Assembly (NCBI RefSeq): GCF_003334785.1
Contig: NZ_QOWV01000002.1
DNA length: 64,000 nt
Reading direction: 5' to 3' (one strand)
DNA from: Escherichia coli
GTDB taxonomy: Bacteria; Pseudomonadota; Gammaproteobacteria; Enterobacterales; Enterobacteriaceae
Shown: positions 9,781-63,744 of the stretch, one piece after another
Layout of the letters: each line of letters begins with the position of its first letter
Numbering within the stretch: position 1 is the first letter of the stretch
The notes under the pieces: model-generated
Seen by the model: the letters and a program-made list of their open reading frames with translations, nothing else
What the model was told of the DNA's origin: nothing
Databases searched by the model: none
Program-made: the position numbers and the translations under genes

Positions 9781-9811
9781 TCAGATTGTTGACCAAGTGC
9801 GCGTTGTACAC

Positions 9812-9909
9812 GCCGGATGCGGCGTGAACGCCTTATCCGGCCTACGAAATCGTGCTAATTCAATATATTGTGGGCTCCACGTAGGCCTGATAAGCGTAGC
9901 GCATCAGGC
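9812..9909. repeat. BIME: two inverted REP palindromic units separated by a linker
   Basis: GCCGGATGCGGCGTGAACGCCTTATCCGGCCTAC ... GTAGGCCTGATAAGCGTAGCGCATCAGGC between convergent yfeX and yfeW. Confidence 0.85.
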
Positions 9910-9934
9910 AGTTTTGCGTTTGTCAGCACTCTCA

Positions 9935-9970
9935 GACCAGCCAGTAACATTACTGACTGGCCTTTTTATT
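9935..9970 (+). terminator. Hairpin plus T-run; likely intrinsic terminator for yfeX read-through; downstream copy of the 28-bp repeat
   Basis: GACCAGCCAGTAACATTACTGACTGGCC followed by TTTTTATT; abuts the yfeW stop codon. Confidence 0.55.
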
Positions 9971-11273
9971 ACTTCTGCTTTAACGCCGCATACACCTGAT
10001 CAACTACCCAACCATAAGTTGCAATCGGCAACTGACCGCTTTCGAACATATTGGGATTCTTTTGCGGATCGGCAACCGGCGAATGTGGCTTGTTGCTTAA
10101 CATCACAATCGTCATATGATTCACCGGATCGATAACGGTCACCGTTCCGGTCCAGCCAGTGTGACCGTAGGTTTGCGGGCTTGCCAGCGTGCCAAACGTC
10201 GGCGTCATGGTGGCATTACCATTCACGCGCCAGCCGAGGCCAAAAGTGGCATCTTCCTTAGAGCTGGTGGTGAACATCTTCACCGTTTCCGCATTGAACA
10301 GCTGCACATCACCATAGCCCCCGCCGTTCAGCATCGTTTGCATTAACACCGCAATATCGCCGGTATTGGAAAACAAACCTGCGTGCCCGGAAACGCCGCC
10401 CATCGAATAAAAGGCTTTTTCATCGTGCACCTGACCCCAGAGAGTGGAGGTGCGGATATTCGGGAAATGGATCACGCCATCGCGGGTATTGCCGTTCAAT
10501 TCCGTGGCGGCAATTTGTTGCGGTTTAAAGCCTTTCAGCAGCGGGTTAAATACCGTATGTGTCAGGCCGAGCGGGCGATAAATCGACTCTTCAACATAGC
10601 GGTCAAGCGGCTGACCGGTAACCGACTCGACGATAAATCCAAGCAGCATATAATCGACATCGCTGTAGATATGTTTGCTGCCGGGCTGATATTCCAGCGG
10701 CGTGCGCTTGATCATCTCCAGCGTCTGGCCTTTATCCTGGGAATATAACGCGCCCGCGACCGCTTTATTCGGGTATTGCGGATCTGCCGGGAAACCGCCG
10801 CTGTGATGCAGCAGGTCAGAAATCCGCAGGGTGTTTTTGCCTTTAATGGTGTCATTTGGACTATCGGCAAACCCCGGAATATATTTCGCAATCCGATCGT
10901 CAGGATGCAGTTTGCCTTCGCTCATCAGCTTTTGCAGGGCGAAGTTCGTGGCGTACATTTTGGTGTTTGAGGCCAGGTCATACAGCGTCCCGGTGGTGGC
11001 TTTGACAGGCTGTTCCATCAACACGCTGCCATCGTACTTTTTCGCCGCTCCCCAGGCTTTGCGATACACAATCTGATTATCTTTAATGATCAGCAGGTTT
11101 ACGCTGGGATAACCGACATCAACTTGCTGGCTAATCCAGCGATCCATCTGGTTAAGCCGTTCGACGTTAAACCCTGCTTTCTCTGGCGAGCTTTCTGTCA
11201 GAACAGGGTATTTTGCGGCGCTGACGCTACAACTAACAGCCAGCAGAGAAAGATAGAGCATTGTCCGTTTCAT
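9969..11273 (-). CDS. yfeW: Penicillin-binding protein 4B (AmpH-like, class C beta-lactamase fold)
   Basis: 434 aa from internal ATG (MKRTMLYLSLLAVSCSVSA signal peptide). Confidence 0.9.
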   Translation of the reverse strand: MKRTMLYLSLLAVSCSVSAAKYPVLTESSPEKAGFNVERLNQMDRWISQQVDVGYPSVNLLIIKDNQIVYRKAWGAAKKYDGSVLMEQPVKATTGTLYDLASNTKMYATNFALQKLMSEGKLHPDDRIAKYIPGFADSPNDTIKGKNTLRISDLLHHSGGFPADPQYPNKAVAGALYSQDKGQTLEMIKRTPLEYQPGSKHIYSDVDYMLLGFIVESVTGQPLDRYVEESIYRPLGLTHTVFNPLLKGFKPQQIAATELNGNTRDGVIHFPNIRTSTLWGQVHDEKAFYSMGGVSGHAGLFSNTGDIAVLMQTMLNGGGYGDVQLFNAETVKMFTTSSKEDATFGLGWRVNGNATMTPTFGTLASPQTYGHTGWTGTVTVIDPVNHMTIVMLSNKPHSPVADPQKNPNMFESGQLPIATYGWVVDQVYAALKQK

Positions 11274-16863: not shown

Positions 16864-17696
16864 TGTTTGCTGTCTCCTCCAGACGCGTGCTGCCGGGCTT
16901 TACCTTAAGCCTCGGCACCAGTCTGCTGTTTGTGTGCCTGATTTTGCTGCTGCCGCTCTCCGCGCTGGTGATGCAACTGGCCCAGATGAGCTGGGCGCAG
17001 TACTGGGAGGTGATCACCAACCCGCAGGTGGTCGCGGCCTACAAAGTAACGCTGCTGTCGGCGTTTGTGGCATCGATTTTTAACGGCGTTTTCGGTCTGC
17101 TGATGGCGTGGATCCTAACCCGCTATCGCTTCCCAGGCCGCACGCTGCTTGATGCGCTGATGGATTTACCCTTTGCGCTGCCAACGGCTGTCGCCGGTTT
17201 AACGCTGGCCTCGCTCTTTTCCGTAAACGGTTTTTACGGTGAATGGCTGGCGAAGTTTGATATCAAAGTCACCTATACATGGCTGGGGATTGCGGTGGCT
17301 ATGGCCTTTACCAGCATTCCGTTTGTGGTGCGTACCGTGCAGCCGGTGCTGGAAGAGTTAGGCCCGGAATATGAAGAAGCGGCGGAAACGCTTGGTGCAA
17401 CGCGCTGGCAGAGTTTCTGCAAAGTGGTGCTGCCGGAGCTTTCTCCGGCGCTGGTGGCGGGCGTGGCGCTGTCGTTTACCCGTAGTCTTGGTGAATTTGG
17501 CGCGGTGATTTTTATCGCCGGAAATATCGCGTGGAAGACGGAAGTGACGTCGCTGATGATTTTTGTGCGCTTACAGGAGTTTGATTACCCGGCAGCGAGC
17601 GCGATTGCTTCGGTGATCCTCGCGGCATCTCTGCTGCTGCTGTTCTCAATTAACACTCTGCAAAGTCGCTTTGGTCGGCGTGTGGTAGGTCATTAA
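16863..17696 (+). CDS. cysU: Sulfate/thiosulfate ABC transporter permease CysU (CysT)
   Basis: 277-aa ORF; start overlaps cysP stop (TGATG). Confidence 0.95.
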   Translation: MFAVSSRRVLPGFTLSLGTSLLFVCLILLLPLSALVMQLAQMSWAQYWEVITNPQVVAAYKVTLLSAFVASIFNGVFGLLMAWILTRYRFPGRTLLDALMDLPFALPTAVAGLTLASLFSVNGFYGEWLAKFDIKVTYTWLGIAVAMAFTSIPFVVRTVQPVLEELGPEYEEAAETLGATRWQSFCKVVLPELSPALVAGVALSFTRSLGEFGAVIFIAGNIAWKTEVTSLMIFVRLQEFDYPAASAIASVILAASLLLLFSINTLQSRFGRRVVGH

Positions 17697-18571
17697 TGGC
17701 GGAAGTTACCCAATTGAAGCGTTATGACGCGCGCCCGATTAACTGGGGCAAATGGTTTCTGATTGGCATCGGGATGCTGGTTTCGGCGTTCATCCTGCTG
17801 GTGCCGATGATTTACATCTTCGTGCAGGCATTCAGCAAGGGGCTGATGCCGGTTTTACAGAATCTGGCCGATCCGGACATGCTGCACGCCATCTGGCTGA
17901 CGGTGATGATCGCGCTGATTGCCGTACCGGTAAACCTGGTGTTCGGCATTCTGCTGGCCTGGCTGGTGACGCGCTTTAACTTCCCTGGACGCCAGTTACT
18001 GCTGACGCTACTGGACATTCCGTTTGCCGTATCGCCGGTGGTTGCCGGTCTGGTGTATTTGCTGTTCTACGGCTCTAACGGCCCGCTCGGCGGTTGGCTC
18101 GACGAGCATAACCTGCAAATTATGTTCTCCTGGCCGGGAATGGTGCTGGTCACCATCTTCGTGACGTGTCCGTTTGTGGTGCGCGAACTGGTGCCGGTGA
18201 TGTTAAGCCAGGGCAGCCAGGAAGACGAAGCGGCGATTTTGCTTGGCGCGTCCGGCTGGCAGATGTTCCGTCGCGTCACATTACCGAACATCCGCTGGGC
18301 GCTGCTTTATGGCGTGGTGTTGACCAACGCCCGCGCAATTGGCGAGTTTGGCGCGGTGTCGGTGGTTTCCGGCTCGATTCGCGGCGAAACCCTGTCGCTG
18401 CCGTTACAGATTGAATTGCTGGAGCAGGACTACAACACCGTCGGCTCCTTTACCGCTGCGGCGCTGTTAACGCTGATGGCGATTATCACCCTGTTTTTAA
18501 AAAGTATGTTGCAGTGGCGCCTGGAGAATCAGGAAAAACGCGCACAGCAGGAGGAACATCATGAGCATTGA
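17696..18571 (+). CDS. cysW: Sulfate/thiosulfate ABC transporter permease CysW
   Basis: 291-aa ORF; start overlaps cysU stop (TAATG). Confidence 0.95.
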
Positions 18572-19658
18572 GATTGCCAATATTAAGAAGTCGTTTGGTC
18601 GCACCCAGGTGCTGAACGATATCTCACTGGATATTCCTTCAGGTCAGATGGTCGCGTTGCTGGGGCCGTCCGGTTCCGGGAAAACCACGCTGCTGCGCAT
18701 TATCGCCGGGCTGGAGCATCAAACCAGCGGGCATATTCGCTTCCACGGCACCGACGTGAGCCGCCTGCACGCACGTGATCGTAAAGTCGGTTTCGTGTTC
18801 CAGCATTACGCGCTGTTCCGCCATATGACGGTGTTCGACAATATCGCTTTTGGCCTGACGGTGCTGCCGCGTCGCGAGCGCCCGAATGCCGCAGCCATCA
18901 AAGCGAAAGTGACAAAATTGCTGGAAATGGTCCAGCTTGCCCATCTGGCGGATCGTTATCCGGCGCAGCTTTCCGGCGGCCAGAAACAGCGCGTGGCGCT
19001 GGCGCGCGCGCTGGCTGTGGAACCGCAAATTCTGCTGCTTGATGAACCGTTTGGCGCGCTGGATGCGCAGGTGCGTAAAGAGCTGCGTCGCTGGCTGCGT
19101 CAACTCCATGAAGAACTAAAATTCACCAGCGTTTTTGTGACCCACGATCAGGAAGAAGCGACCGAAGTAGCTGATCGTGTAGTTGTGATGAGCCAGGGCA
19201 ATATTGAACAGGCTGACGCGCCGGATCAGGTATGGCGCGAACCGGCGACCCGTTTTGTGCTCGAATTTATGGGCGAAGTGAACCGCCTGCAGGGAACCAT
19301 TCGCGGCGGGCAGTTCCATGTTGGCGCGCATCGCTGGCCGCTGGGCTACACACCTGCGTATCAGGGGCCGGTGGATCTCTTCCTGCGCCCTTGGGAAGTG
19401 GATATCAGCCGCCGTACCAGCCTCGATTCGCCGCTGCCGGTACAGGTACTGGAAGCCAGCCCGAAAGGTCACTACACCCAATTAGTGGTGCAGCCGCTGG
19501 GGTGGTACAACGAACCGCTGACGGTCGTGATGCATGGCGACGATGCCCCGCAGCGTGGCGAGCGTTTATTCGTTGGTCTGCAACATGCGCGGCTGTATAA
19601 CGGCGACGAGCGTATCGAAACCCGCGATGAGGAACTTGCTCTCGCACAAAGCGCCTGA
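18561..19658 (+). CDS. cysA: Sulfate/thiosulfate ABC transporter ATP-binding protein
   Basis: 365-aa ORF; Walker [10 protein letters not shown] and LSGGQ signature; 11-nt overlap with cysW. Confidence 0.95.
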
Positions 19659-19732
19659 TAGGTTGAGTGAATGTTAAACGCCCGGAGGCGCTTCCCGCGA
19701 TCCGGGCTTTTTAATGGCAAGGTTTGTAACCT

Positions 19733-19770
19733 GTAGACCTGATAAGACGCGCAAGCGTCGCATCAGGCAA
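19733..19770. repeat. Single REP element
   Basis: CCTGATAAGACGCGCAAGCGTCGCATCAGGC palindrome between cysA and cysM. Confidence 0.8.
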
Positions 19771-19791
19771 CACCACGTATGGATAGAGATC

Positions 19792-20703
19792 GTGAGTACA
19801 TTAGAACAAACAATAGGCAATACGCCTCTGGTGAAGTTGCAGCGAATGGGGCCGGATAACGGCAGTGAAGTGTGGTTAAAACTGGAAGGCAATAACCCGG
19901 CAGGTTCGGTGAAAGATCGTGCGGCACTTTCGATGATCGTCGAGGCGGAAAAGCGCGGGGAAATTAAACCGGGTGATGTCTTAATCGAAGCCACCAGTGG
20001 TAACACCGGCATTGCGCTGGCAATGATTGCCGCGCTGAAAGGCTATCGCATGAAATTGCTGATGCCCGACAACATGAGCCAGGAACGCCGTGCGGCGATG
20101 CGTGCTTATGGTGCGGAACTGATTCTTGTCACCAAAGAGCAGGGCATGGAAGGTGCGCGCGATCTGGCGCTGGAGATGGCGAATCGTGGCGAAGGAAAGC
20201 TGCTCGATCAGTTCAATAATCCCGATAACCCTTATGCGCATTACACCACCACTGGGCCGGAAATCTGGCAGCAAACCGGCGGGCGCATCACTCATTTTGT
20301 CTCCAGCATGGGGACGACCGGCACTATCACCGGCGTCTCACGCTTTATGCGCGAACAATCCAAACCGGTGACCATTGTCGGCCTGCAACCGGAAGAGGGC
20401 AGCAGCATTCCCGGCATTCGCCGCTGGCCTACGGAATATCTGCCGGGGATTTTCAACGCTTCTCTGGTGGATGAGGTGCTGGATATTCATCAGCGCGATG
20501 CGGAAAACACCATGCGCGAACTGGCGGTGCGGGAAGGAATATTCTGTGGCGTCAGCTCCGGCGGCGCGGTTGCCGGAGCACTGCGGGTGGCAAAAGCTAA
20601 CCCTGACGCGGTGGTGGTGGCGATCATCTGCGATCGTGGCGATCGCTACCTTTCTACCGGGGTGTTTGGGGAAGAGCATTTTAGCCAGGGGGCGGGGATT
20701 TAA
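19792..20703 (+). CDS. cysM: Cysteine synthase B (O-acetylserine sulfhydrylase B)
   Basis: 303 aa from GTG at 19792 (STLEQTIGNTPLVKLQRMGPDNG...); PLP lysine motif SVKDRA. Confidence 0.93.
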   Translation: MSTLEQTIGNTPLVKLQRMGPDNGSEVWLKLEGNNPAGSVKDRAALSMIVEAEKRGEIKPGDVLIEATSGNTGIALAMIAALKGYRMKLLMPDNMSQERRAAMRAYGAELILVTKEQGMEGARDLALEMANRGEGKLLDQFNNPDNPYAHYTTTGPEIWQQTGGRITHFVSSMGTTGTITGVSRFMREQSKPVTIVGLQPEEGSSIPGIRRWPTEYLPGIFNASLVDEVLDIHQRDAENTMRELAVREGIFCGVSSGGAVAGALRVAKANPDAVVVAIICDRGDRYLSTGVFGEEHFSQGAGI

Positions 20704-20742
20704 GGATTAATAGCATCGGAGACTGATGACAAACGCAAAACT

Positions 20743-20840
<98 letters not shown>

Positions 20841-20891
20841 ATAAACAAAGCGCACTTTTTTAACAGTTGTTGCTGCCGACAAATGCAGTAT

Positions 20892-21626
20892 TTAATTTTC
20901 GTGAGGAAACGCCGTAAGGTCATCAATCATTTTTTGAAGTATTGGTGAGTCCTGACCGTCACCCCATTGAAGAATTTTTGCGGTAAGCTGATGACGCGCT
21001 AGTGCATTGAGTCCCATCTTTTTAAGTTTATGGGAGATTTTACCCATGACTTTAATCTGACCGAATGCAGTTGCGTAGGTAATCATATTGCTCTGGATAG
21101 TGCTCATTTCATCGACTAGTAATTGCGCACGAACATCCTCTTCAAGAATACTGTCCATAGCGATGTATTTCATACCCCACATAGTTTCAATTAACATTTG
21201 AGGGAAATCAGCACAGTCCAGATCCGGCTCTTTACGGAGGCTATTTTCAAGAACGTTTAGAGCATCAGCACCTTCATCGCTGCCAAAAGGAGATTCTTCA
21301 TCCCAGCAACACATATAAAGTGGATCAGTAAAATGGCACTGGAAGTTTGGGTGTGACGTTTTAACATGTAACCCAATTTCTTCATCATCAAAATAGTAGC
21401 GATCCATGAAGTTAAACTTTGGATCTTCTTGATAGCCTTTCTTCATTTTTGCGGCAATCAATTTACTGGCTTCTTTCAGACACTGTTCTTCATTATCGAA
21501 CTCTTTTGTCTGGAATTTACCAATACTACCTACCTTGCCATAGTTGACAGCTAAACTATCCCCTTCGTAATCTATCCACCAAAATTTATTCGATTTTTCA
21601 TCGTGATAAATAAAGCGTTTTTTCAT
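20892..21626 (-). CDS. yfeS: Uncharacterised protein YfeS (WGR-domain-like N-terminus)
   Basis: 244-aa ORF (MKKRFIYHDEKSNKFWWIDYEGDS...); visibly AT-rich coding sequence. Confidence 0.8.
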   Translation of the reverse strand: MKKRFIYHDEKSNKFWWIDYEGDSLAVNYGKVGSIGKFQTKEFDNEEQCLKEASKLIAAKMKKGYQEDPKFNFMDRYYFDDEEIGLHVKTSHPNFQCHFTDPLYMCCWDEESPFGSDEGADALNVLENSLRKEPDLDCADFPQMLIETMWGMKYIAMDSILEEDVRAQLLVDEMSTIQSNMITYATAFGQIKVMGKISHKLKKMGLNALARHQLTAKILQWGDGQDSPILQKMIDDLTAFPHEN

Positions 21627-21658
21627 GTTACCTCCTGTAAATGCCTTCCCAAAGCGGA

Positions 21659-22033
21659 TTAATTTCCTTCCGCAGGCACCGTTTTATCCGTCTGCGCAAT
21701 TAACGCATGTAAAAAAGGCTGTGCGTTCTCATCGCTCTTACCGGGGATCTTCACAATATACGGCTTCCCAGTAATCGATGACGACGAAGCAACCTTATCA
21801 ATAAACTGCTCGGCAGTGTCAATGCGGTTACGGGTATTGCCGAGCTTCAGACGCAGATGAGAAACCGCTTCATAGCAGGTATGTTCATCACCGTTGCGCA
21901 CAAATATCAAATCCTTTTTCTGTGCTAATCCCTCCAGCATGGCGTTGATGCGGGCTTCTTCATGGGCAGTTAACTTCGCGTAAACGGGGAGTGTCATTAG
22001 TAGTGTAATGACCAGACAAATGATTTTCTTCAT
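21659..22033 (-). CDS. yfeK: Small secreted protein YfeK
   Basis: 124-aa ORF with N-terminal signal peptide ([19 protein letters not shown]). Confidence 0.8.
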
Positions 22034-22058
22034 TGAATTACCTTATCCTTGTTTTGTG

Positions 22059-22101
<43 letters not shown>

Positions 22102-22137
22102 TTACGATGAGGATCATCGGCAAGGAGAAAAAATTAA

Positions 22138-22989
22138 ATGAGTAGTTTGTTGTTGTTTAACGATAAGAGTAGGGCACTGCAGGCGGATATCGTCGCTGTG
22201 CAGTCGCAGGTGGTTTACGGCAGCGTGGGCAACAGCATTGCCGTGCCTGCTATCAAACAGAACGGCCTGAATGTCTTTGCCGTGCCGACGGTATTGCTGA
22301 GCAATACGCCGCATTATGACACTTTCTACGGTGGTGCGATTCCGGACGAATGGTTTAGCGGCTATTTGCGTGCGCTTCAGGAGCGTGATGCGCTGCGCCA
22401 ACTTCGTGCTGTAACCACGGGCTATATGGGAACGGCATCGCAAATCAAAATCCTTGCCGAGTGGCTGACTGCGCTACGCAAAGACCATCCTGACCTATTG
22501 ATCATGGTCGATCCGGTGATTGGCGATATTGATAGCGGAATTTATGTCAAACCTGACCTTCCCGAAGCGTATCGACAATATTTACTGCCGCTGGCGCAGG
22601 GAATTACCCCCAATATCTTTGAGTTGGAAATCCTGACCGGTAAAAATTGCCGCGATCTCGACAGTGCCATTGCTGCCGCAAAAAGTCTGCTTTCAGACAC
22701 ATTAAAATGGGTGGTGGTTACCAGCGCCTCCGGTAATGAAGAAAATCAGGAGATGCAGGTTGTGGTGGTCACTGCCGACAGCGTGAATGTCATTTCCCAT
22801 TCACGGGTAAAAACCGACCTGAAAGGGACTGGCGACCTGTTTTGTGCTCAGCTCATCAGTGGCTTGCTGAAAGGGAAGGCGTTAACCGATGCAGTGCACC
22901 GAGCGGGGTTGCGCGTACTGGAAGTGATGCGCTACACCCAGCAGCATGAGAGCGATGAATTGATTTTGCCGCCGCTGGCGGAAGCATAA
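22138..22989 (+). CDS. pdxK: Pyridoxal/pyridoxine/pyridoxamine kinase
   Basis: 283-aa ORF; ribokinase-like fold; conserved position next to crr. Confidence 0.92.
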
Positions 22990-23017
22990 AAAAATGGCGC
23001 CGATGGGCGCCATTTTT
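22987..23017. terminator. Bidirectional intrinsic terminator shared by convergent pdxK and crr
   Basis: AAAAAAA-TGGCGCC-GATG-GGCGCCA-TTTTT. Confidence 0.8.
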
Positions 23018-23031
23018 CACTGCGGCAAGAA

Positions 23032-23541
23032 TTACTTCTTGATGCGGATAACCGGGGTTTCACCCACGGTTACGCTACCGGACAGTTTGATCAGTTCTTT
23101 GATTTCGTCCATGTTGGAGATAACAACCGGAGTCAGGGTAGACTTGGCTTTCTCTTCCAGCAGCGGCAGATCAAATTCAATGACAGTATCGCCAACTTTC
23201 ACGCGCTGACCTTCTTCAGCAATACGCTTGAAGCCTTCGCCTTTCAGTTCAACGGTGTCGATACCGAAGTGGACGAACAGTTCAACGCCGCTATCAGATT
23301 CGATAGAGAATGCGTGGTTGGTTTCAAAGATTTTACCAATGGTGCCGTCTACTGGCGCGACCATTTTGTTACCCGTTGGTTTGATAGCAATACCATCACC
23401 AACGATTTTTTCCGCAAAAACGACATCCGGCACGTCTTCGATATTGACGATCTCGCCAGAGAGCGGAGCAATGATCTCAATAGTTCCGGTATCCTTCTTG
23501 TCGTCGGAAACCAGAGATTTCAGTTTATCGAACAAACCCAT
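23032..23541 (-). CDS. crr: Glucose-specific PTS enzyme IIA (EIIA-Glc)
   Basis: 169-aa ORF ([39 protein letters not shown]...). Confidence 0.97.
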
Positions 23542-23581
23542 GATCTTCTCCTAAGCAGTAAATTGGGCCGCATCTCGTGGA

Positions 23582-25309
23582 TTAGCAGATTGTTTTTTCT
23601 TCAATGAACTTGTTAACCAGCGTCATTAACTCGTCCGTTGTCGGTTGAGCAAGAGCCTGCTCTGCTAACACCTTCGCATCTTCGAAGTTCGTGTTACGGA
23701 TAATCTTCTTAATGCGCGGGATAGAAATGGCGCTCATAGAGAATTCGTCCAGACCCATCCCCAGCAACAGAAGTGTAGCACGTTCATCGCCAGCAAGCTC
23801 ACCACACATGCCAGTCCATTTGCCTTCAGCATGAGAAGCATCAATAACTTGCTTGATCAAGTTCAGCACGGACGGTGACATTGGCTGGTAAAGGTGTGAA
23901 ATCATATCATTACCACGGTCAACTGCCAGAGTGTACTGCGTTAAATCATTGGTGCCGATACTAAAGAAATCAACTTCTTTGGCTAAATGACGTGCAATTG
24001 TTGCGGCAGCCGGTGTTTCCACCATTACGCCGATTTCAATTGACTCGTCAAACGCTTTACCTTCGTCGCGCAGTTCCTGTTTGTAGATTTCGATCTCTTT
24101 GCGCAGTGCACGCACTTCTTCAACAGAGATGATCATCGGGAACATAATGCGCAATTTACCGAAAGCCGAGGCACGCAGGATAGCGCGGAGCTGATCGCGC
24201 AGGATCTCTCTACGATCCATCGCGATACGGATAGCGCGCCAGCCGAGGAACGGGTTCTCTTCTTTCGGGAAGTTCATGTATGGCAGCTCTTTGTCGCCGC
24301 CGATGTCCATGGTACGAACGATAACCGCTTGCGAGCCACACGCTTCAGCCACTGCTTTGTAAGCAGCAAACTGTTCTTCTTCAGTGGGCAGTGCGTCGCG
24401 GTCCATGAACAGGAACTCAGTACGATACAGACCAACGCCTTCAGCGCCGTTACGCTCTGCACCTTCAACGTCACGAACCGTACCAATGTTAGCGCATACT
24501 TCTACCTGGTGACCGTCCAGCGTAATAGCTGGCAGATCTTTCAGTTTAGCAAGCTCTGCTTTTTCAGAAGCCACTTGCTCCTGAACAGCGCGCATTTTAT
24601 CAATAACTTCGTTGGTTGGATTGACGTAAACCTGATTATTTACGGCATCCAGAATCAGATAGTCGTCATTTTTCACCTGAGAGGTGACGCTACCGGTACC
24701 CACGATAGCAGGTAGTTCCAGAGAACGCGCCATGATAGAGGTGTGGGAAGTACGGCCACCCGCGTCGGTGATGAAACCCAGCACCTTCTTCAGGTTCAGC
24801 TGTGCGGTTTCGGACGGCGTCAGGTCAGCGGCAACCAGAATGACTTCATCCTGAATGGCGCTCAGGTCGATAATCTTCAGGCCCAGGATGTTGCGCAGCA
24901 GGCGCTTACCGATATCACGTACGTCAGCCGCACGTTCTTTCAGGTATTCATCATCCAGCTCTTCCAGGGCAGAAGCCTGACCTTCGATAACTTCATGAGC
25001 AGCTGCGTCAGCTGTCATGTGCTTATCTTTAATCAGGGCTATGATTTCCTGCTCCAGCTCCTCATCTTCGAGCAGCATAATATGCCCTTCAAAGATGGCT
25101 TCTTTTTCTTCACCGAACGTTTCACCAGCTTTCGTTTTGATCGTTTCCAGCTGGGCTGATGCCTTGGCACGACCGCTCAGAAAACGTTCAACTTCCTGAT
25201 CAACCTGGTCGGCAGAAATTTTTTTCCGGTCAATGACAATTTCGTCTTCTTTCAGAAGCAGAGCTTTACCGAAAGCGATACCCGGGGATGCTAAAATGCC
25301 TGAAATCAT
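23582..25309 (-). CDS. ptsI: PTS enzyme I (phosphoenolpyruvate-protein phosphotransferase)
   Basis: 575-aa ORF ([19 protein letters not shown]...). Confidence 0.97.
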
Positions 25310-25353
25310 AACCCTACCTTACTTGTGACTGATTTTTAAAAGAACCCGGGAAA

Positions 25354-25611
25354 TTACTCGAGTTCCGCCATCAGTTTAACCAGATGTTCAACCGCTTTCT
25401 GCTCGTCTTCGCCTTCTGCGGAGATAGTCACAACGGTACCTTGAGTCAGGCCCAGAGTCTGCAGTTTAAACAGGCTTTTCGCGCTGGCGCTTTTGCCGTT
25501 GGAAGTCACAGTAATTTCAGAAGTGAAGCCCTTAGCTTCTTTTACAAACTGGGCAGCAGGGCGGGTGTGCAGACCGTTCGGAGCGGTAATGGTAACTTCT
25601 TGCTGGAACAT
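25354..25611 (-). CDS. ptsH: Phosphocarrier protein HPr
   Basis: 85-aa ORF ([27 protein letters not shown]...), active-site His15 context. Confidence 0.97.
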
Positions 25612-25944
25612 TGTATTTCCCCAACTTATAGGTTTAGTGTTGTGGAACTAAAGTCTAGCCTGGCGGTTCGACTTTAGCCTGTATTGTTAGCGCCAGTTTT
25701 TAACAGACGCGACGCACGAAGAGCGCAATACAGTCCATTGCTGGCGGGTGTTGACCGCTGACGTTTCGTACGTCATTAAACATTATGCCGCTAAAGGAAG
25801 AATTGAACCAAATCATAAAATCGATTCAGCTTTGGCTTTTCCTGTAACGATTAATTTCGCGCATCAAAATAATTAGTCTGGTTAAATACCAGTTCCGACA
25901 GGCTGAATCAATGCCAGGAGGGGCGAAAGTTTGAAGCAGGCCAC

Positions 25945-25972
25945 AAAAAAGCACCTAAAAAGGTGCTTTTTT
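25945..25972. terminator. Intrinsic terminator downstream of cysK (bidirectional architecture)
   Basis: AAAAAA-GCACC-TAAAAA-GGTGC-TTTTTT, 25-50 nt beyond the cysK stop on the minus strand. Confidence 0.75.
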
Positions 25973-25994
25973 ACGCATTTTTAACAAGCTGGCA

Positions 25995-57143: not shown

Positions 57144-58841
57144 TCAAAGCAATAACGTAGCCTGTGAGGCGACTGGGGTGCGTTGGTTAGGAATGTAAAA
57201 CGCAATTTCCGTCCCCGGCTCCAGGCGGCGGATATGCAGCCCCTCGCCATACAATAACTTCACGCGATGATGGACATTCAGCAGGCCAATTTTATTGCCC
57301 GGCATTTCATTCGCTTCGACCCGCTCAATCACCTTTGGATCGATGCCGTGCCCGGTATCTCGCACCGCAATGCGTACCCGATTTCCGCACTCTGCAACGC
57401 TGATGGTGACAACGCCTTTACCTTTGCAAGGCTGAATACCGTGGACAATGGCGTTCTCCACCAACGGCTGGATCAGCAGGCTGGGAATGCAGCAATTCAC
57501 CTCTTCATCAATATCATAGATAACCGTCAGCTTGTCACCAAAGCGGGCCTGCTCAATGGCAATATAGTCTTTAATTTGATACAGCTCTTTTTTGATATCG
57601 ATTTGCTCATCGTCTTTTAATTCAATGTTATAGCGCAGATAACGCGACAGATTAAAGATCAACTGGCGAGCGGTATCCGGATTCAGACGGATTGACGATG
57701 AAATAGCGTTCAGAGCGTTAAACAGAAAATGGGGATTAATTTTGCTTTGCAGGGCGCGAAGCTCTGCCTTATTTGCCATTTCACGTAGCTGCTCGGCGCG
57801 TGAAACCTCCAGTTGCGTGGAGATGATTTGCGACAGACCGACCGCCATTTCCTGTAATGACGAGGTGATCTGATGCGCGTGGCAGTAGTAAATTTTCAGC
57901 GTTCCGGTCACGACCCCTTTCTCCCACAATGGGATCACCAGCATGGAATGAATCTCTGGTGTGCGGTGGGCTTCATCATTGTTTTTAATGATGATTTTTC
58001 CGTAATTCATCGCCTGACGGGTAGTCGGGCTAATGAAGTCATCGCCATTCTGATAGTTATGTTCACCCACGCCAACATAGGCCAGCACATGATCGGTATT
58101 AGTAATCGCCACCGCATCGGCGTGAATGTCATCGCGGATAATTTCGCAGACCTTGCGTAATGACTCGCTATTGACATGGCGAAACAGCGGTAGCGTTTTG
58201 TTGGCGATATCCAGCGCCAGCTTGGCCTGCCGCGCGGCGCTGGCCTCTTTTTCGCCCTCAACGCTTTGCACCAGAAGCACAATAAAGCCGATACAGACGC
58301 TACCGAGGATCATTGGAATGCCGATTTTAGAGACGATATCGATCCCCAACGCGGTAGTTGGTGCCCAGACAATTACCAGAATCATGGTCAACGTCTCACA
58401 CAACATGCCGCCGAGAATACCGACGCGCCAGCGCTGTGCTTTGGGGATTTTCAGGTTGATCCAGCCCGATATACAACCCGCCAGAATGCTGGTGATAAAG
58501 CAGGGGATCGCCGTCACGCCGCCGATATCAATTAAATACCGGTGAATACCCGCAATCACGCCGGTAATGATGCCTACCCACGGGCCAAACAGAATCCCGC
58601 CGGACATCACCGCGATAATACGTACGTTCACCAGCGAGCCTTCTACGGGAACGCCGGACCAGGTGCTGAACAGGGCGAACAGCGAGAAAATGGCGGTAAC
58701 GGCGAGCAATTCTTTTGGGGAGTGCGCCGACTTGTGCAACAGTTCGCGAAACAGGCGGATACGGATGAGAAAGAACAGGCAGATAAGCATTAACGCTGCC
58801 CGATCGAAGACCGCCAGCAGCATGTTGAATATTTCGTGCAC
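57144..58841 (-). CDS. ypdA: LytS-type sensor histidine kinase YpdA
   Basis: 565-aa ORF; N-terminal polytopic membrane domain, GAF-like region, histidine kinase core (H-box ...PHFLFNALN...). Confidence 0.9.
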
Positions 58842-59216
58842 GGGTGACTCTGAATAAGGATTAAACCTCTATGATAGGTAACCTGAAGGCTGATGACCAG
58901 CAGGCCGTTTTTGAGGAAAAACCACAATTTTAAAAGGGGATTGATAGATAAATGGTGTATTAGCAATGCATCTCTTGATAATGCACTTCTGGTTAGTAAA
59001 TTTATTGAAATTATTATGTTAATAAAATGAGTGGTAATTTTCTTGTTAGCGCAGATAAATTTCCTGTTTTTAAAGCAGAGTTCCTCATTTAACGTCATTA
59101 ATAAAATGTTCTAAAACGCTGGACAGACAGAAATTAATCAGGCTATTTTCAAAACAGCCACCATCGTGGCAGCGTCGCTCGGACGGTCCGGGCGCTAACG
59201 TTAATCTGAGGAAATT

Positions 59217-61866: not shown

Positions 61867-62218
61867 AGTTACCTTCTGTAGATACGAATTGTTGTATCGC
61901 AGAAGATTCCATGTCGACAGCGGTACACTCAATTGGTTGGGCCATCATGTACGACAATGGTTCCTGTAAAGAGTGTAAAGACTAGTCAGGACATAACCAC
62001 GAGGAGCATGAAGGCGGTATCTGTACTTTATCACTCGCTGACTGCTTTCAGCTACTGATTATTAATCGTGCAAAGTAAATATTTTTCCGTACACAACAGT
62101 CTTGCATTTAACATGCTGTTTTCATTGATGCTTAGCAAAAATTGCCAGAGGTTAAGGATTGTCTTACTATTAAAGTGACTGAAGTTACAGGTTTTTTAGC
62201 GCGGCAGGAGGTTGAGCT

Positions 62219-63108: not shown

Positions 63109-63744
63109 ATGAAACGTTTAATTATGGCCACGATGGTCACAGCAATTCTGGCATCTTCAACTGTATGGGCTGCTGATAATGCTCCGGTAGCGGCACAACA
63201 GCAAACTCAGCAAGTTCAGCAAACCCAGAAAACGGCAGCGGCAGCAGAGCGTATCTCTGAACAAGGTTTATATGCGATGCGTGACGTGCAGGTAGCGCGC
63301 CTGGCTCTGTTTCATGGCGATCCAGAAAAGGCAAAAGAACTGACCAATGAAGCTTCCGCTTTGCTGTCAGATGACAGTACCGAATGGGCAAAGTTCGCTA
63401 AGCCAGGTAAAAAGACCAATCTCAATGATGACCAATATATTGTCATTAATGCATCTGTCGGAATTTCTGAGAGTTATGTAGCAACTCCCGAAAAAGAAGC
63501 CGCGATAAAAATTGCCAATGAAAAAATGGCGAAAGGGGATAAAAAGGGCGCAATGGAAGAGCTTCGCCTGGCCGGTGTTGGCGTAATGGAAAACCAATAT
63601 CTGATGCCACTTAAACAGACTCGTAATGCACTTGCTGATGCGCAGAAACTGCTTGATAAAAAGCAATACTACGAGGCAAACCTGGCGCTTAAAGGTGCGG
63701 AAGATGGAATCATCGTCGATAGCGAAGCACTGTTTGTGAACTAA
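63109..63744 (+). CDS. yfdX: Periplasmic protein YfdX (EvgA-regulated)
   Basis: 211-aa ORF with signal peptide ([21 protein letters not shown]). Confidence 0.88.

Follow-up and report, generated by a model that had tools for sequence, protein, structure and literature searches.

Is the AT-rich interval between cysM and pdxK in Escherichia coli a foreign two-gene islet, or does it combine an acquired gene with a resident one? The question was raised by a first-pass annotation of a 64,000-nucleotide stretch of E. coli DNA (contig NZ_QOWV01000002.1 of assembly GCF_003334785.1; hereafter the window), which put forward yfeS and yfeK together as the most plausible horizontally acquired unit. The surrounding region has the E. 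coli K-12-type order cysPUWAM / yfeS / yfeK / pdxK / crr-ptsI. For yfeS the claim stands on its presence in 25.6% of genomes, a precise empty site, foreign composition, and distant relatives; for yfeK it falls, as this gene is found in essentially all genomes, is syntenic, and has an ordinary composition. The foreign unit is yfeS alone, together with its ribosome-binding site, a bacterial interspersed mosaic element (BIME), and the last three codons of yfeK. The principal features are as follows, in window coordinates.

20705..21670, no strand assigned: variable segment of 966 nt, delimited by alignment against three empty-site genomes and by junction sequences
20892..21626, minus strand: yfeS coding sequence, 244 aa, cytoplasmic product with an isoelectric point (pI) of 4.98
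21659..22033, minus strand: yfeK coding sequence (DUF5329), 124-aa allele with a VPAEGN end and a signal-peptide-like N-terminus; core gene

The distribution of yfeS was determined in 5,426 complete E. coli genomes. Megablast with positions 20600 to 22250 recovered the full stretch in only 1,381 genomes, the others matching as two directly adjoining pieces. The gene itself was present in 1,387 genomes, at a median of one place per carrier (maximum, two), with a single place spanning at least 80% of yfeS in 1,383 of the 1,387 carriers and with 1,399 of the 1,400 places being chromosomal. A 201-bp probe found the empty junction contiguous in 4,038 genomes (74.4%); occupied and empty genomes together account for 5,425 of the 5,426, and the locus is strictly biallelic. 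No yfeS relative was found on a genuine E. coli plasmid. The sole apparent match, a candidate second paralogue (H61, 70% amino acid identity) on NZ_CP098226.1 (L097), listed in PLSDB as a 50-kb E. coli plasmid, was rejected, since the record looks like a piece of chromosome that is noisy or was mis-assembled; its first 10 kb are collinear with window positions 17542 to 27608 at 95% identity, with many indels. Decay of the gene was also seen, in the form of insertions of the insertion sequence (IS) element IS1A in NZ_CP026929.2 (H1) and NZ_AP027474.1 (H31), a truncation in NZ_CP100936.1 (H60), and fragments only in Shigella flexneri (P0042 and Q0T288).

In place of the 966-nt segment, empty E. 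coli alleles have 7 nt (ATTATTG). The segment contains the BIME, yfeS, the yfeS Shine-Dalgarno sequence, and the last three codons and stop of the 124-aa yfeK allele. In empty genomes, the stop codons of cysM and yfeK lie 2 bp apart and YfeK has 122 aa, with VPAQ directly before the stop; in occupied genomes, YfeK has 124 aa and ends in VPAEGN. The junction features are listed here, with a divergent E. coli yfeS allele (L003) and two Pseudocitrobacter alleles (L017 and L098) as the comparison.

19792..20703, plus strand: cysM, cysteine synthase B, the conserved left flank, with its stop codon at 20701-20703; taken from the open reading frame (ORF) list
20704..20711, plus strand: 8-nt direct repeat GGATTAAT, left copy, where the segment meets cysM; without mismatch in L003, L017, and L098
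20741..20846, no strand assigned: BIME, two inverted copies of the repetitive extragenic palindromic (REP) sequence around a 43-nt central motif
21656..21663, plus strand: right copy of GGATTAAT, overlapping the yfeK stop and last codon

The cysM product has 303 aa in matching RefSeq records, with an extra upstream in-frame start in the ORF list. The spacing of the two GGATTAAT copies is 952 nt, and the right copy is exact in L003 and L017 and carries one mismatch in L098. We dropped the repeat as stand-alone evidence, since repeats of this length are common by chance (the region has 16 families of 8-nt repeats); it counts only because it sits exactly at the two junctions and is conserved in those occupied alleles that were compared. 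The 188-bp spacer between cysM and yfeS is a genuine BIME, an inverted REP pair that is highly repeated in the genome, with Rfam matches to ES036 (20764-20806) and the REP-derived naRNA4 (20810-20846). A query including this spacer matched a median of 39 places per E. coli genome, and the element is also found in the yfeS-bearing Pseudocitrobacter allele (92%). A second BIME-like element, at 9782-9928, is approximately 83% identical to it. The BIME, the two reading frames, and the divergent pdxK all lie where they had first been annotated. Neither the window ORFs nor the annotations of matching records showed an integrase, IS, or mobility gene at the yfeS locus, and no tRNA was found between 15 and 28 kb of the window; the features of a classical genomic island are lacking at yfeS, with no integrase, no tRNA target, and an 8-nt direct repeat only.

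Base composition separates the two genes. The pair had looked AT-rich by eye, which is correct for the whole 1,142-bp yfeS-yfeK span (GC content of 41.9% versus 51.5% on average across the window; 1.4th percentile among stretches of equal length) and for yfeS, but not for yfeK. Among the 59 window ORFs of at least 100 aa, yfeS takes the lowest position, rank 1 (GC, 39.2%; GC at third codon positions [GC3], 0.367; z = -2.8), whereas yfeK is ordinary (GC, 46.4%; GC3, 0.512; rank 9; z = -0.8) and close to crr (GC, 47.3%; GC3, 0.535) and ptsI. Elsewhere in the window, the lowest-GC stretch of 1,142 bp begins at 62021 (40.5%), and further atypical ORFs lie at 58790-59098 on the minus strand (GC, 36.9%) and at 63109-63744 (GC3, 0.41) and 9797-10135 (GC3, 0.39) on the plus strand.

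The comparative record of yfeK is that of a core, vertically inherited gene of the Enterobacteriaceae. It occurs in virtually all E. coli genomes, with or without yfeS, has orthologues throughout the family (DUF5329; NCBIfam PRK10318), and is syntenic with cysM in each relative examined, namely, Salmonella, Klebsiella, and Pseudocitrobacter. Because yfeK is core and yfeS is accessory, comparative and knockout work should treat the two separately. In uropathogenic E. coli 536 (L002, 1607-1976), yfeK is annotated as a frameshifted pseudogene, so that at least one lineage can do without this core gene. The site between yfeK and cysM holds different cargo in different genera: an ORF of 116 aa, hydrophobic at its N-terminus and without a Pfam match (L100, 4376-4726), followed by approximately 320 bp of non-coding DNA, in Salmonella enterica, and a SnoaL/DUF4440 gene in Klebsiella. 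Pseudocitrobacter faecalis agrees with empty E. coli in both the 2-bp junction and the VPAQ tail. Gene turnover seems to be concentrated in the crr-cysM interval as a whole. E. coli pdxK has only 66 to 73% DNA identity to its counterparts in Pseudocitrobacter, Klebsiella, and Salmonella (L098 and L100 to L102) whereas the adjacent crr has 90 to 92%, GntR-aminotransferase and GATase genes lie between pdxK and yfeK in Salmonella and Klebsiella, and in Pseudocitrobacter a CSS-EAL gene separates crr from pdxK and a SnoaL gene lies upstream of yfeK.

From where, then, did yfeS come? Beyond E. coli, Shigella, and Pseudocitrobacter, the best match (65% identity) is on a metagenomic contig, and the next homologues, at 50 to 58% identity, belong to Paenibacillus, Lysinibacillus, Clostridium, Dysgonomonas, and gut metagenome contigs; Bacteroides is also among the sources of the next-best homologues, which span 50 to 65% identity. 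A scan of 100,044 species (one genome each) yielded 174 relatives, in Paenibacillus, Bacteroides, Dysgonomonas, Bacillus, Flavobacterium, Neisseria, Eikenella, Fusobacterium, Porphyromonas, and Exiguobacterium as well as in Clostridia and others; among the best 80 of the 174, the Enterobacterales contributed only 2, a Pseudocitrobacter metagenome-assembled genome and an Escherichia isolate (585-bp contig). The GC content of the homologues follows that of their hosts, from 28% to 59%, and that of E. coli yfeS (39%) is not yet ameliorated to its host. No relatives were found in IMG/VR, and GenBank phages gave only four small Listeria records, with the C-terminal domain.

The occupied allele is shared with other Pseudocitrobacter (L017 and L098), which carry yfeK with the VPAEGN end, the spacer end with its Shine-Dalgarno sequence, yfeS, the BIME, and cysM. 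Between K-12 and Pseudocitrobacter, synonymous divergence (dS) is 0.12 to 0.19 for yfeS versus 0.45 to 0.55 for cysM, 0.85 for yfeK, and approximately 0.6 for crr. Since the value for yfeS is far below those of its flanks, the gene is younger than the split of the genera and must have moved between them; homologous recombination in the flanks, which are 85 to 90% identical, is the likeliest route of transfer. Within E. coli, the yfeS allele classes differ by a dS of 0.09 versus 0.11 for the flanks, which argues against a recent arrival in the species, and ratios of nonsynonymous to synonymous divergence (dN/dS) of 0.13 to 0.2, both within E. coli and between genera, point to purifying selection. 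Separately, cysW (17696-18571) shows a dS to Pseudocitrobacter of 0.20 to 0.25 compared with 0.45 to 0.55 for cysA and cysM (L017, L098, and L102); the low value is also seen in a yfeS-lacking genome and may be due to a recombination tract of its own or to strong constraint on codons.

We infer, with good support, that yfeS entered once by illegitimate recombination and then spread by homologous recombination. The initial event would have been a single microhomology-type insertion into an enterobacterial chromosome, with a low-GC gene pool of the Firmicutes/Bacteroidota type as the probable source, after which the occupied allele would have passed within and between Escherichia and Pseudocitrobacter by way of the cysM and yfeK flanks. 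Weighing against this account, the polarity of the insertion is unproven, 124-aa YfeK tails occur in Klebsiella too, and the direct repeat could equally mediate deletion.

Alternatively, yfeS may be old at this site, dating back to the ancestor shared by Escherichia and Pseudocitrobacter, the empty allele being a deletion that spread, i.e., a loss rather than a gain. Such a deletion could have been driven by the flanking 8-nt repeat, and a YfeK of 124 aa with a Glu-containing tail, as seen in Klebsiella, agrees with it, as do the decay of yfeS (IS1 insertions, truncations, and Shigella fragments) and the match of its divergence within E. coli to that of the flanks, by which it is not recent. 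We nevertheless consider this unlikely: between genera, the dS of yfeS is 3 to 5 times below that of both adjacent genes, and a simple repeat-mediated deletion leaves VPAEGN, whereas empty E. coli and P. faecalis share VPAQ followed by the stop. The composition of yfeS is, in addition, still strongly foreign, and the only Escherichia among the best 80 of 174 relatives is the isolate with the 585-bp contig. Joint acquisition of yfeS and yfeK as a two-gene islet is highly improbable, for although the genes adjoin on the same strand, 32 bp apart, are co-transcribed, and form an AT-rich span, yfeK occurs in E. coli regardless of yfeS, sits beside cysM in yfeS-lacking Salmonella, Klebsiella, and P. 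faecalis, has a GC3 that is normal for the window, and is far more diverged from Pseudocitrobacter than yfeS is.

How a gene inserted in this manner is expressed can be read from its junction with yfeK, where the following features lie.

21631..21636, minus strand: Shine-Dalgarno sequence AGGAGG of yfeS, 4 nt upstream of the ATG, in the 32-nt yfeK-yfeS spacer
22067..22094, minus strand: sigma-E-type promoter of yfeK(S), GAAACTT-N16-TCAAA, located as a motif in the sequence
22138..22989, plus strand: pdxK, the divergent right neighbour

The motif conforms to the sigma-E-type -35/-10 pattern (GGAACTT-N16-TCAAA-like). Its -10 element ends 33 nt upstream of the yfeK ATG, and the motif is identical in yfeS-lacking E. 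coli. A pattern scan found no promoter-like or sigma-70-like site in the 32-nt spacer, the end of which, TTACAGGAGGTAACATG, is kept in L003, L017, and L098. In the literature, yfeKS is handled as an operon of the sigma-E regulon (PMC2685091, PMC3326320, and PMC6850105). Both genes rise with rpoE in restriction-induced death (PMC2685091), and secretion stress raises yfeK by a log2 value of 1.7 and yfeS by 0.9 (PMC6850105). Overproduction of YfeK stops growth, and overproduction of YfeS has no effect (PMC2685091). The statement in the first-pass annotation that neither gene has an established function still holds, yet the pair is known as a sigma-E operon (PMC2685091 and PMC6850105). Because yfeS has no promoter-like site of its own and because of these reports, we infer, again with good support, that yfeS is expressed by read-through from the sigma-E (envelope-stress) promoter of yfeK and would in this way have taken over the regulation of its neighbour. 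Taken jointly, this account of the anatomy, origin, and expression of the yfeS segment is probably correct.

What the acquired protein might do is best approached from its two parts, which are encoded as follows.

21417..21626, minus strand: yfeS codons 1-70, minimal WGR domain, four strands and a helix, with YGK replacing W-G-R
20895..21416, minus strand: yfeS codons 71-244, acidic C-terminal domain, a non-regular N-terminal stretch and then helices

A WGR-like N-terminus and an acidic C-terminal domain had been proposed for YfeS from the sequence alone, and both were recovered: WGR (PF05406; residues 9 to 71, E value of 1.2e-17) is its only Pfam domain, and the pI is a basic 8.6 for residues 1 to 70 and an acidic 4.6 for the C-terminal part. 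An AlphaFold model built with 54 homologues (predicted local distance difference test [pLDDT], 96; predicted template modelling score [pTM], 0.92) places a four-stranded sheet and a helix at residues 1 to 62 and a non-regular start followed by helices at residues 71 to 244. The N-terminal part is accordingly predicted to have the WGR fold, in which an antiparallel sheet packs on a helix. WGR is the nucleic-acid-end-binding module of PARPs. The W-G-R triad, which is a naming motif rather than a requirement of the Pfam model, is not kept in YfeS, where the family consensus is VNYGK (N28, G30, and K31 conserved), with W replaced by Y and R by K.

The C-terminal domain carries the motifs TSHP (90-93), PFGSDEGxD (113-121), and QIKxxG (190-195), and H92, P113, G115, and G195 do not vary even in remote homologues. 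Searching 1.84 billion representatives with phmmer yielded 188 clusters with this domain, which occurs alone (approximately 165 to 200 aa) or fused to WGR, DUF4253 (4 of 54), or DUF4240 (1 of 54); neither DUF is an established immunity domain, and a match to Imm26 was below threshold (E value of 0.15). Its occurrence both alone and in varied fusions indicates that it is an independent, undescribed module. It has no Pfam model, no solved structural relative, and no recognisable ligand or enzymatic fold. PHROGs matched the WGR part only, and PADLOC gave no match for YfeS or YfeK at E values up to 1.

The genomic context of YfeS relatives was compared by all-against-all clustering of 708 neighbouring proteins from 72 loci with 35 genus-level labels. 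No conserved partner gene emerged, with no neighbour family in more than 5 genus labels, indicating that yfeS is a self-contained single-gene module. Several relatives nonetheless lie among immunity genes. The gut protein P0026 is found in co-directional arrays of approximately 18 genes with 33% GC (L006 and L007 each), headed by a 379-aa tyrosine recombinase of the Phage_integrase family and containing Imm10, Imm19, Barstar, SUKH, Macro, DUF4304, and DUF6678. Recombinase-associated acquired interbacterial defence clusters (rAID-1) are defined by an XerD-like recombinase at least 44% identical to BF9343_RS08045, at least two co-directional downstream genes, and a GC content of at most 41%; the P0026 arrays (L006 to L008) show two of these three features, the co-directional genes and the low GC content, and their recombinase is a candidate for the remaining one. 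A tyrosine recombinase was rejected as a general companion, a near-identical one being found only at P0026 loci and three other loci having no more than weak or partial matches (26 to 57% identity). The Paenibacillus copy adjoins Imm10, DUF2750, which is Imm16 (PMC3482391), NUDIX, and GrpB, and in Lysinibacillus a SUKH-Imm51 polyimmunity protein is encoded two genes upstream of the YfeS homologue. In a set of 150 proteins encoded no more than two genes away from homologues at 41 loci, tallied from the 20 commonest Pfam families per batch, Ank was found 5 times, SUKH 3 to 4 times, and Imm68 and Imm51 twice each; array-type loci also have Imm43 and Imm68. A heterogeneous polyimmunity setting was found at L005 to L008, L011, L015, and array-type loci, but not at the E. 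coli locus.

Other copies stand alone among housekeeping genes; the Neisseria copy adjoins mreBC, and one at another array-type locus is close to ruvABC. In Dysgonomonas sp. 25 (L014, 6001-6732), the YfeS homologue is a single co-directional gene inside the trp operon, in the order Glycos_transf_3 (trpD-like), a 379-aa ORF, an MFS transporter, the YfeS homologue, IGPS, PRAI, and Trp_syntA; this is a lone cassette inside a housekeeping transcription unit, the same pattern as in E. coli. No toxin gene was adjacent to a YfeS homologue in the 72 loci. Large upstream proteins were considered as a cognate toxin and rejected, as they were an S-layer-like protein, a kinase/histidine-kinase fusion, a TonB receptor, and GyrA. 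The survey of immunity families by Zhang et al. 2012 (PMC3482391) and the rAID preprint (Ross et al. 2019, bioRxiv 10.1101/471110) do not mention WGR, and further literature searches yielded PARP papers only. The association of the WGR family with polyimmunity arrays is unreported so far.

Our leading guess, offered tentatively and by analogy with these relatives, is that YfeS is an orphan immunity-type protein. Such a protein would stoichiometrically neutralise an incoming interbacterial toxin, probably one that acts on nucleic acids or through ADP-ribosylation. The reasoning is guilt by association, since relatives in Bacteroidales, Paenibacillus, and Lysinibacillus lie in orphan-immunity arrays. 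Several observations weigh against it: no adjacent toxin and no broadly shared partner family appeared at the 72 loci, many homologues are single insertions among housekeeping genes, and conservation across phyla is unusually high, at 50 to 58% identity with TSHP and PFGSDEGxD invariant. WGR goes unmentioned among immunity families in the two sources cited above, with no PADLOC match either, and the sole reported phenotype, which concerns boric acid, is not readily connected with interbacterial toxins. In that study, deletion of yfeS lowered the MIC (minimum inhibitory concentration) of boric acid to 45 to 50 mM from 100 mM in the wild type and was partly complemented (PMC11502571).

About equal weight can be given to the possibility that YfeS acts on its own to sense or bind a universal ligand, which may be damaged DNA or RNA, the end of a nucleic acid, or a derivative of ADP-ribose or of a nucleotide. 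Recognition would fall to the WGR domain, the acidic domain would serve as an output or second site, and the arrays would reflect mobility only. Strong conservation across phyla, including the invariant polar motifs (H92, D117, D121, and K192), is more in keeping with a universal ligand than with a toxin that evolves fast, and the WGR domains of PARP1 to PARP3 are DNA-break sensors (PMC6294510 and PMC4678113). The same minimal WGR heads the architectures of 2ra8 (Bacteroides fragilis), MolR/DUF4132, and LIC_11051; the Macro, NUDIX, and GrpB neighbours handle ADP-ribose or nucleotides; and the lack of a partner gene, with many copies alone among housekeeping genes, points the same way. In contrast, the W and R of the triad are replaced in YfeS, the C-terminal domain has no recognisable ligand or enzymatic fold, known immunity families are enriched beside homologues, and yfeS is dispensable in 74% of E. 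coli. The boric acid phenotype does not discriminate between a universal ligand and immunity.

It is considerably less probable that yfeS, although expressed, is a relic in E. coli, carried neutrally and not selected for any role. Its absence from 74% of genomes at no known cost, the lack of effect of its overexpression (PMC2685091), and the occasional IS1 insertions and Shigella pseudogenes are what a relic would show. A dN/dS of 0.13 to 0.2 within E. coli and between genera is not, nor are the retention of at least 80% of the gene at one place in 1,383 of 1,387 carriers and a deletion phenotype that can be partly complemented.

yfeS is among the approximately 2% of E. coli K-12 genes still without a function, and it is, in its general form, a small, ordinary-looking horizontally acquired cassette. 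More noteworthy are the precise re-tailing of a core gene, the regulation by a stress regulon, and the sharing of an allele pair by two genera, along with a well-conserved domain without known relatives and the presence of the WGR family in polyimmunity arrays. The locus offers a small, clean example of a foreign gene with its own ribosome-binding site and no recognisable promoter of its own that is regulated by a stress-regulon neighbour. Furthermore, approximately 1,400 complete genomes with yfeS and approximately 4,000 with the precise empty site provide natural near-isogenic pairs, and the context of the relatives points to the types of assay in which these could be used, namely, toxin neutralisation and the binding of nucleic-acid ends and ADP-ribose. 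If YfeS is indeed an immunity protein, acquired interbacterial defence extends from the arrays of Bacteroidales to single cassettes in E. coli. More speculatively, and in our view unlikely as a whole, YfeS may found a hitherto unrecognised cross-phylum family of orphan cassettes for interbacterial immunity or the sensing of toxin damage, combining a minimal WGR with a new acidic helical domain. In E. coli strains of the phylogroup A type, this cassette would have landed behind a sigma-E promoter, such that damage to the envelope, as inflicted by contact-dependent attack, would induce a cytoplasmic antidote drawn from the Bacteroidales/Firmicutes gut pool.

Comparison with known systems places yfeS near several of them. 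Like the members of polyimmunity loci (PMC3482391) and rAID-1 clusters (Ross et al. 2019, bioRxiv 10.1101/471110), YfeS homologues occur in co-directional low-GC arrays with Imm10, Imm19, Barstar, SUKH, Imm43, Imm51, Imm68, and Ank neighbours, the gene is mobile between phyla as a single-gene cassette, and the C-terminal domain is fused to the array-associated DUF4253 and DUF4240; unlike them, E. coli yfeS stands by itself, outside any array and without a recombinase, no toxin is adjacent anywhere, and the sequence is conserved to a degree far beyond that of typical immunity proteins. The WGR domains of PARP1, PARP2, and PARP3 resemble that of YfeS in fold, in their significant Pfam match, and in a basic surface, whereas the YfeS version has 67 to 70 residues, has YGK in place of WGR, and comes without the PARP catalytic domain. 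A nearly identical WGR module is found in the minimal-WGR proteins, namely, B. fragilis Q64V53 (PDB 2ra8; 44% identical to the YfeS WGR over 67 residues) and the MolR (WGR plus DUF4132), STM4015, and LIC_11051 families, but these proteins, all uncharacterised, have other C-terminal domains, and that of YfeS is a separate family. Finally, the segment resembles the small strain-specific indels in core intergenic regions of E. coli that have REP sequences or BIMEs at their junctions in being a lone-gene polymorphism between convergent core genes, with a BIME at one end, an 8-nt direct repeat, no mobility genes, and spread via flanking homology; it differs from them in that both of its alleles are shared with Pseudocitrobacter and the last codons of the neighbouring core gene have been rewritten.

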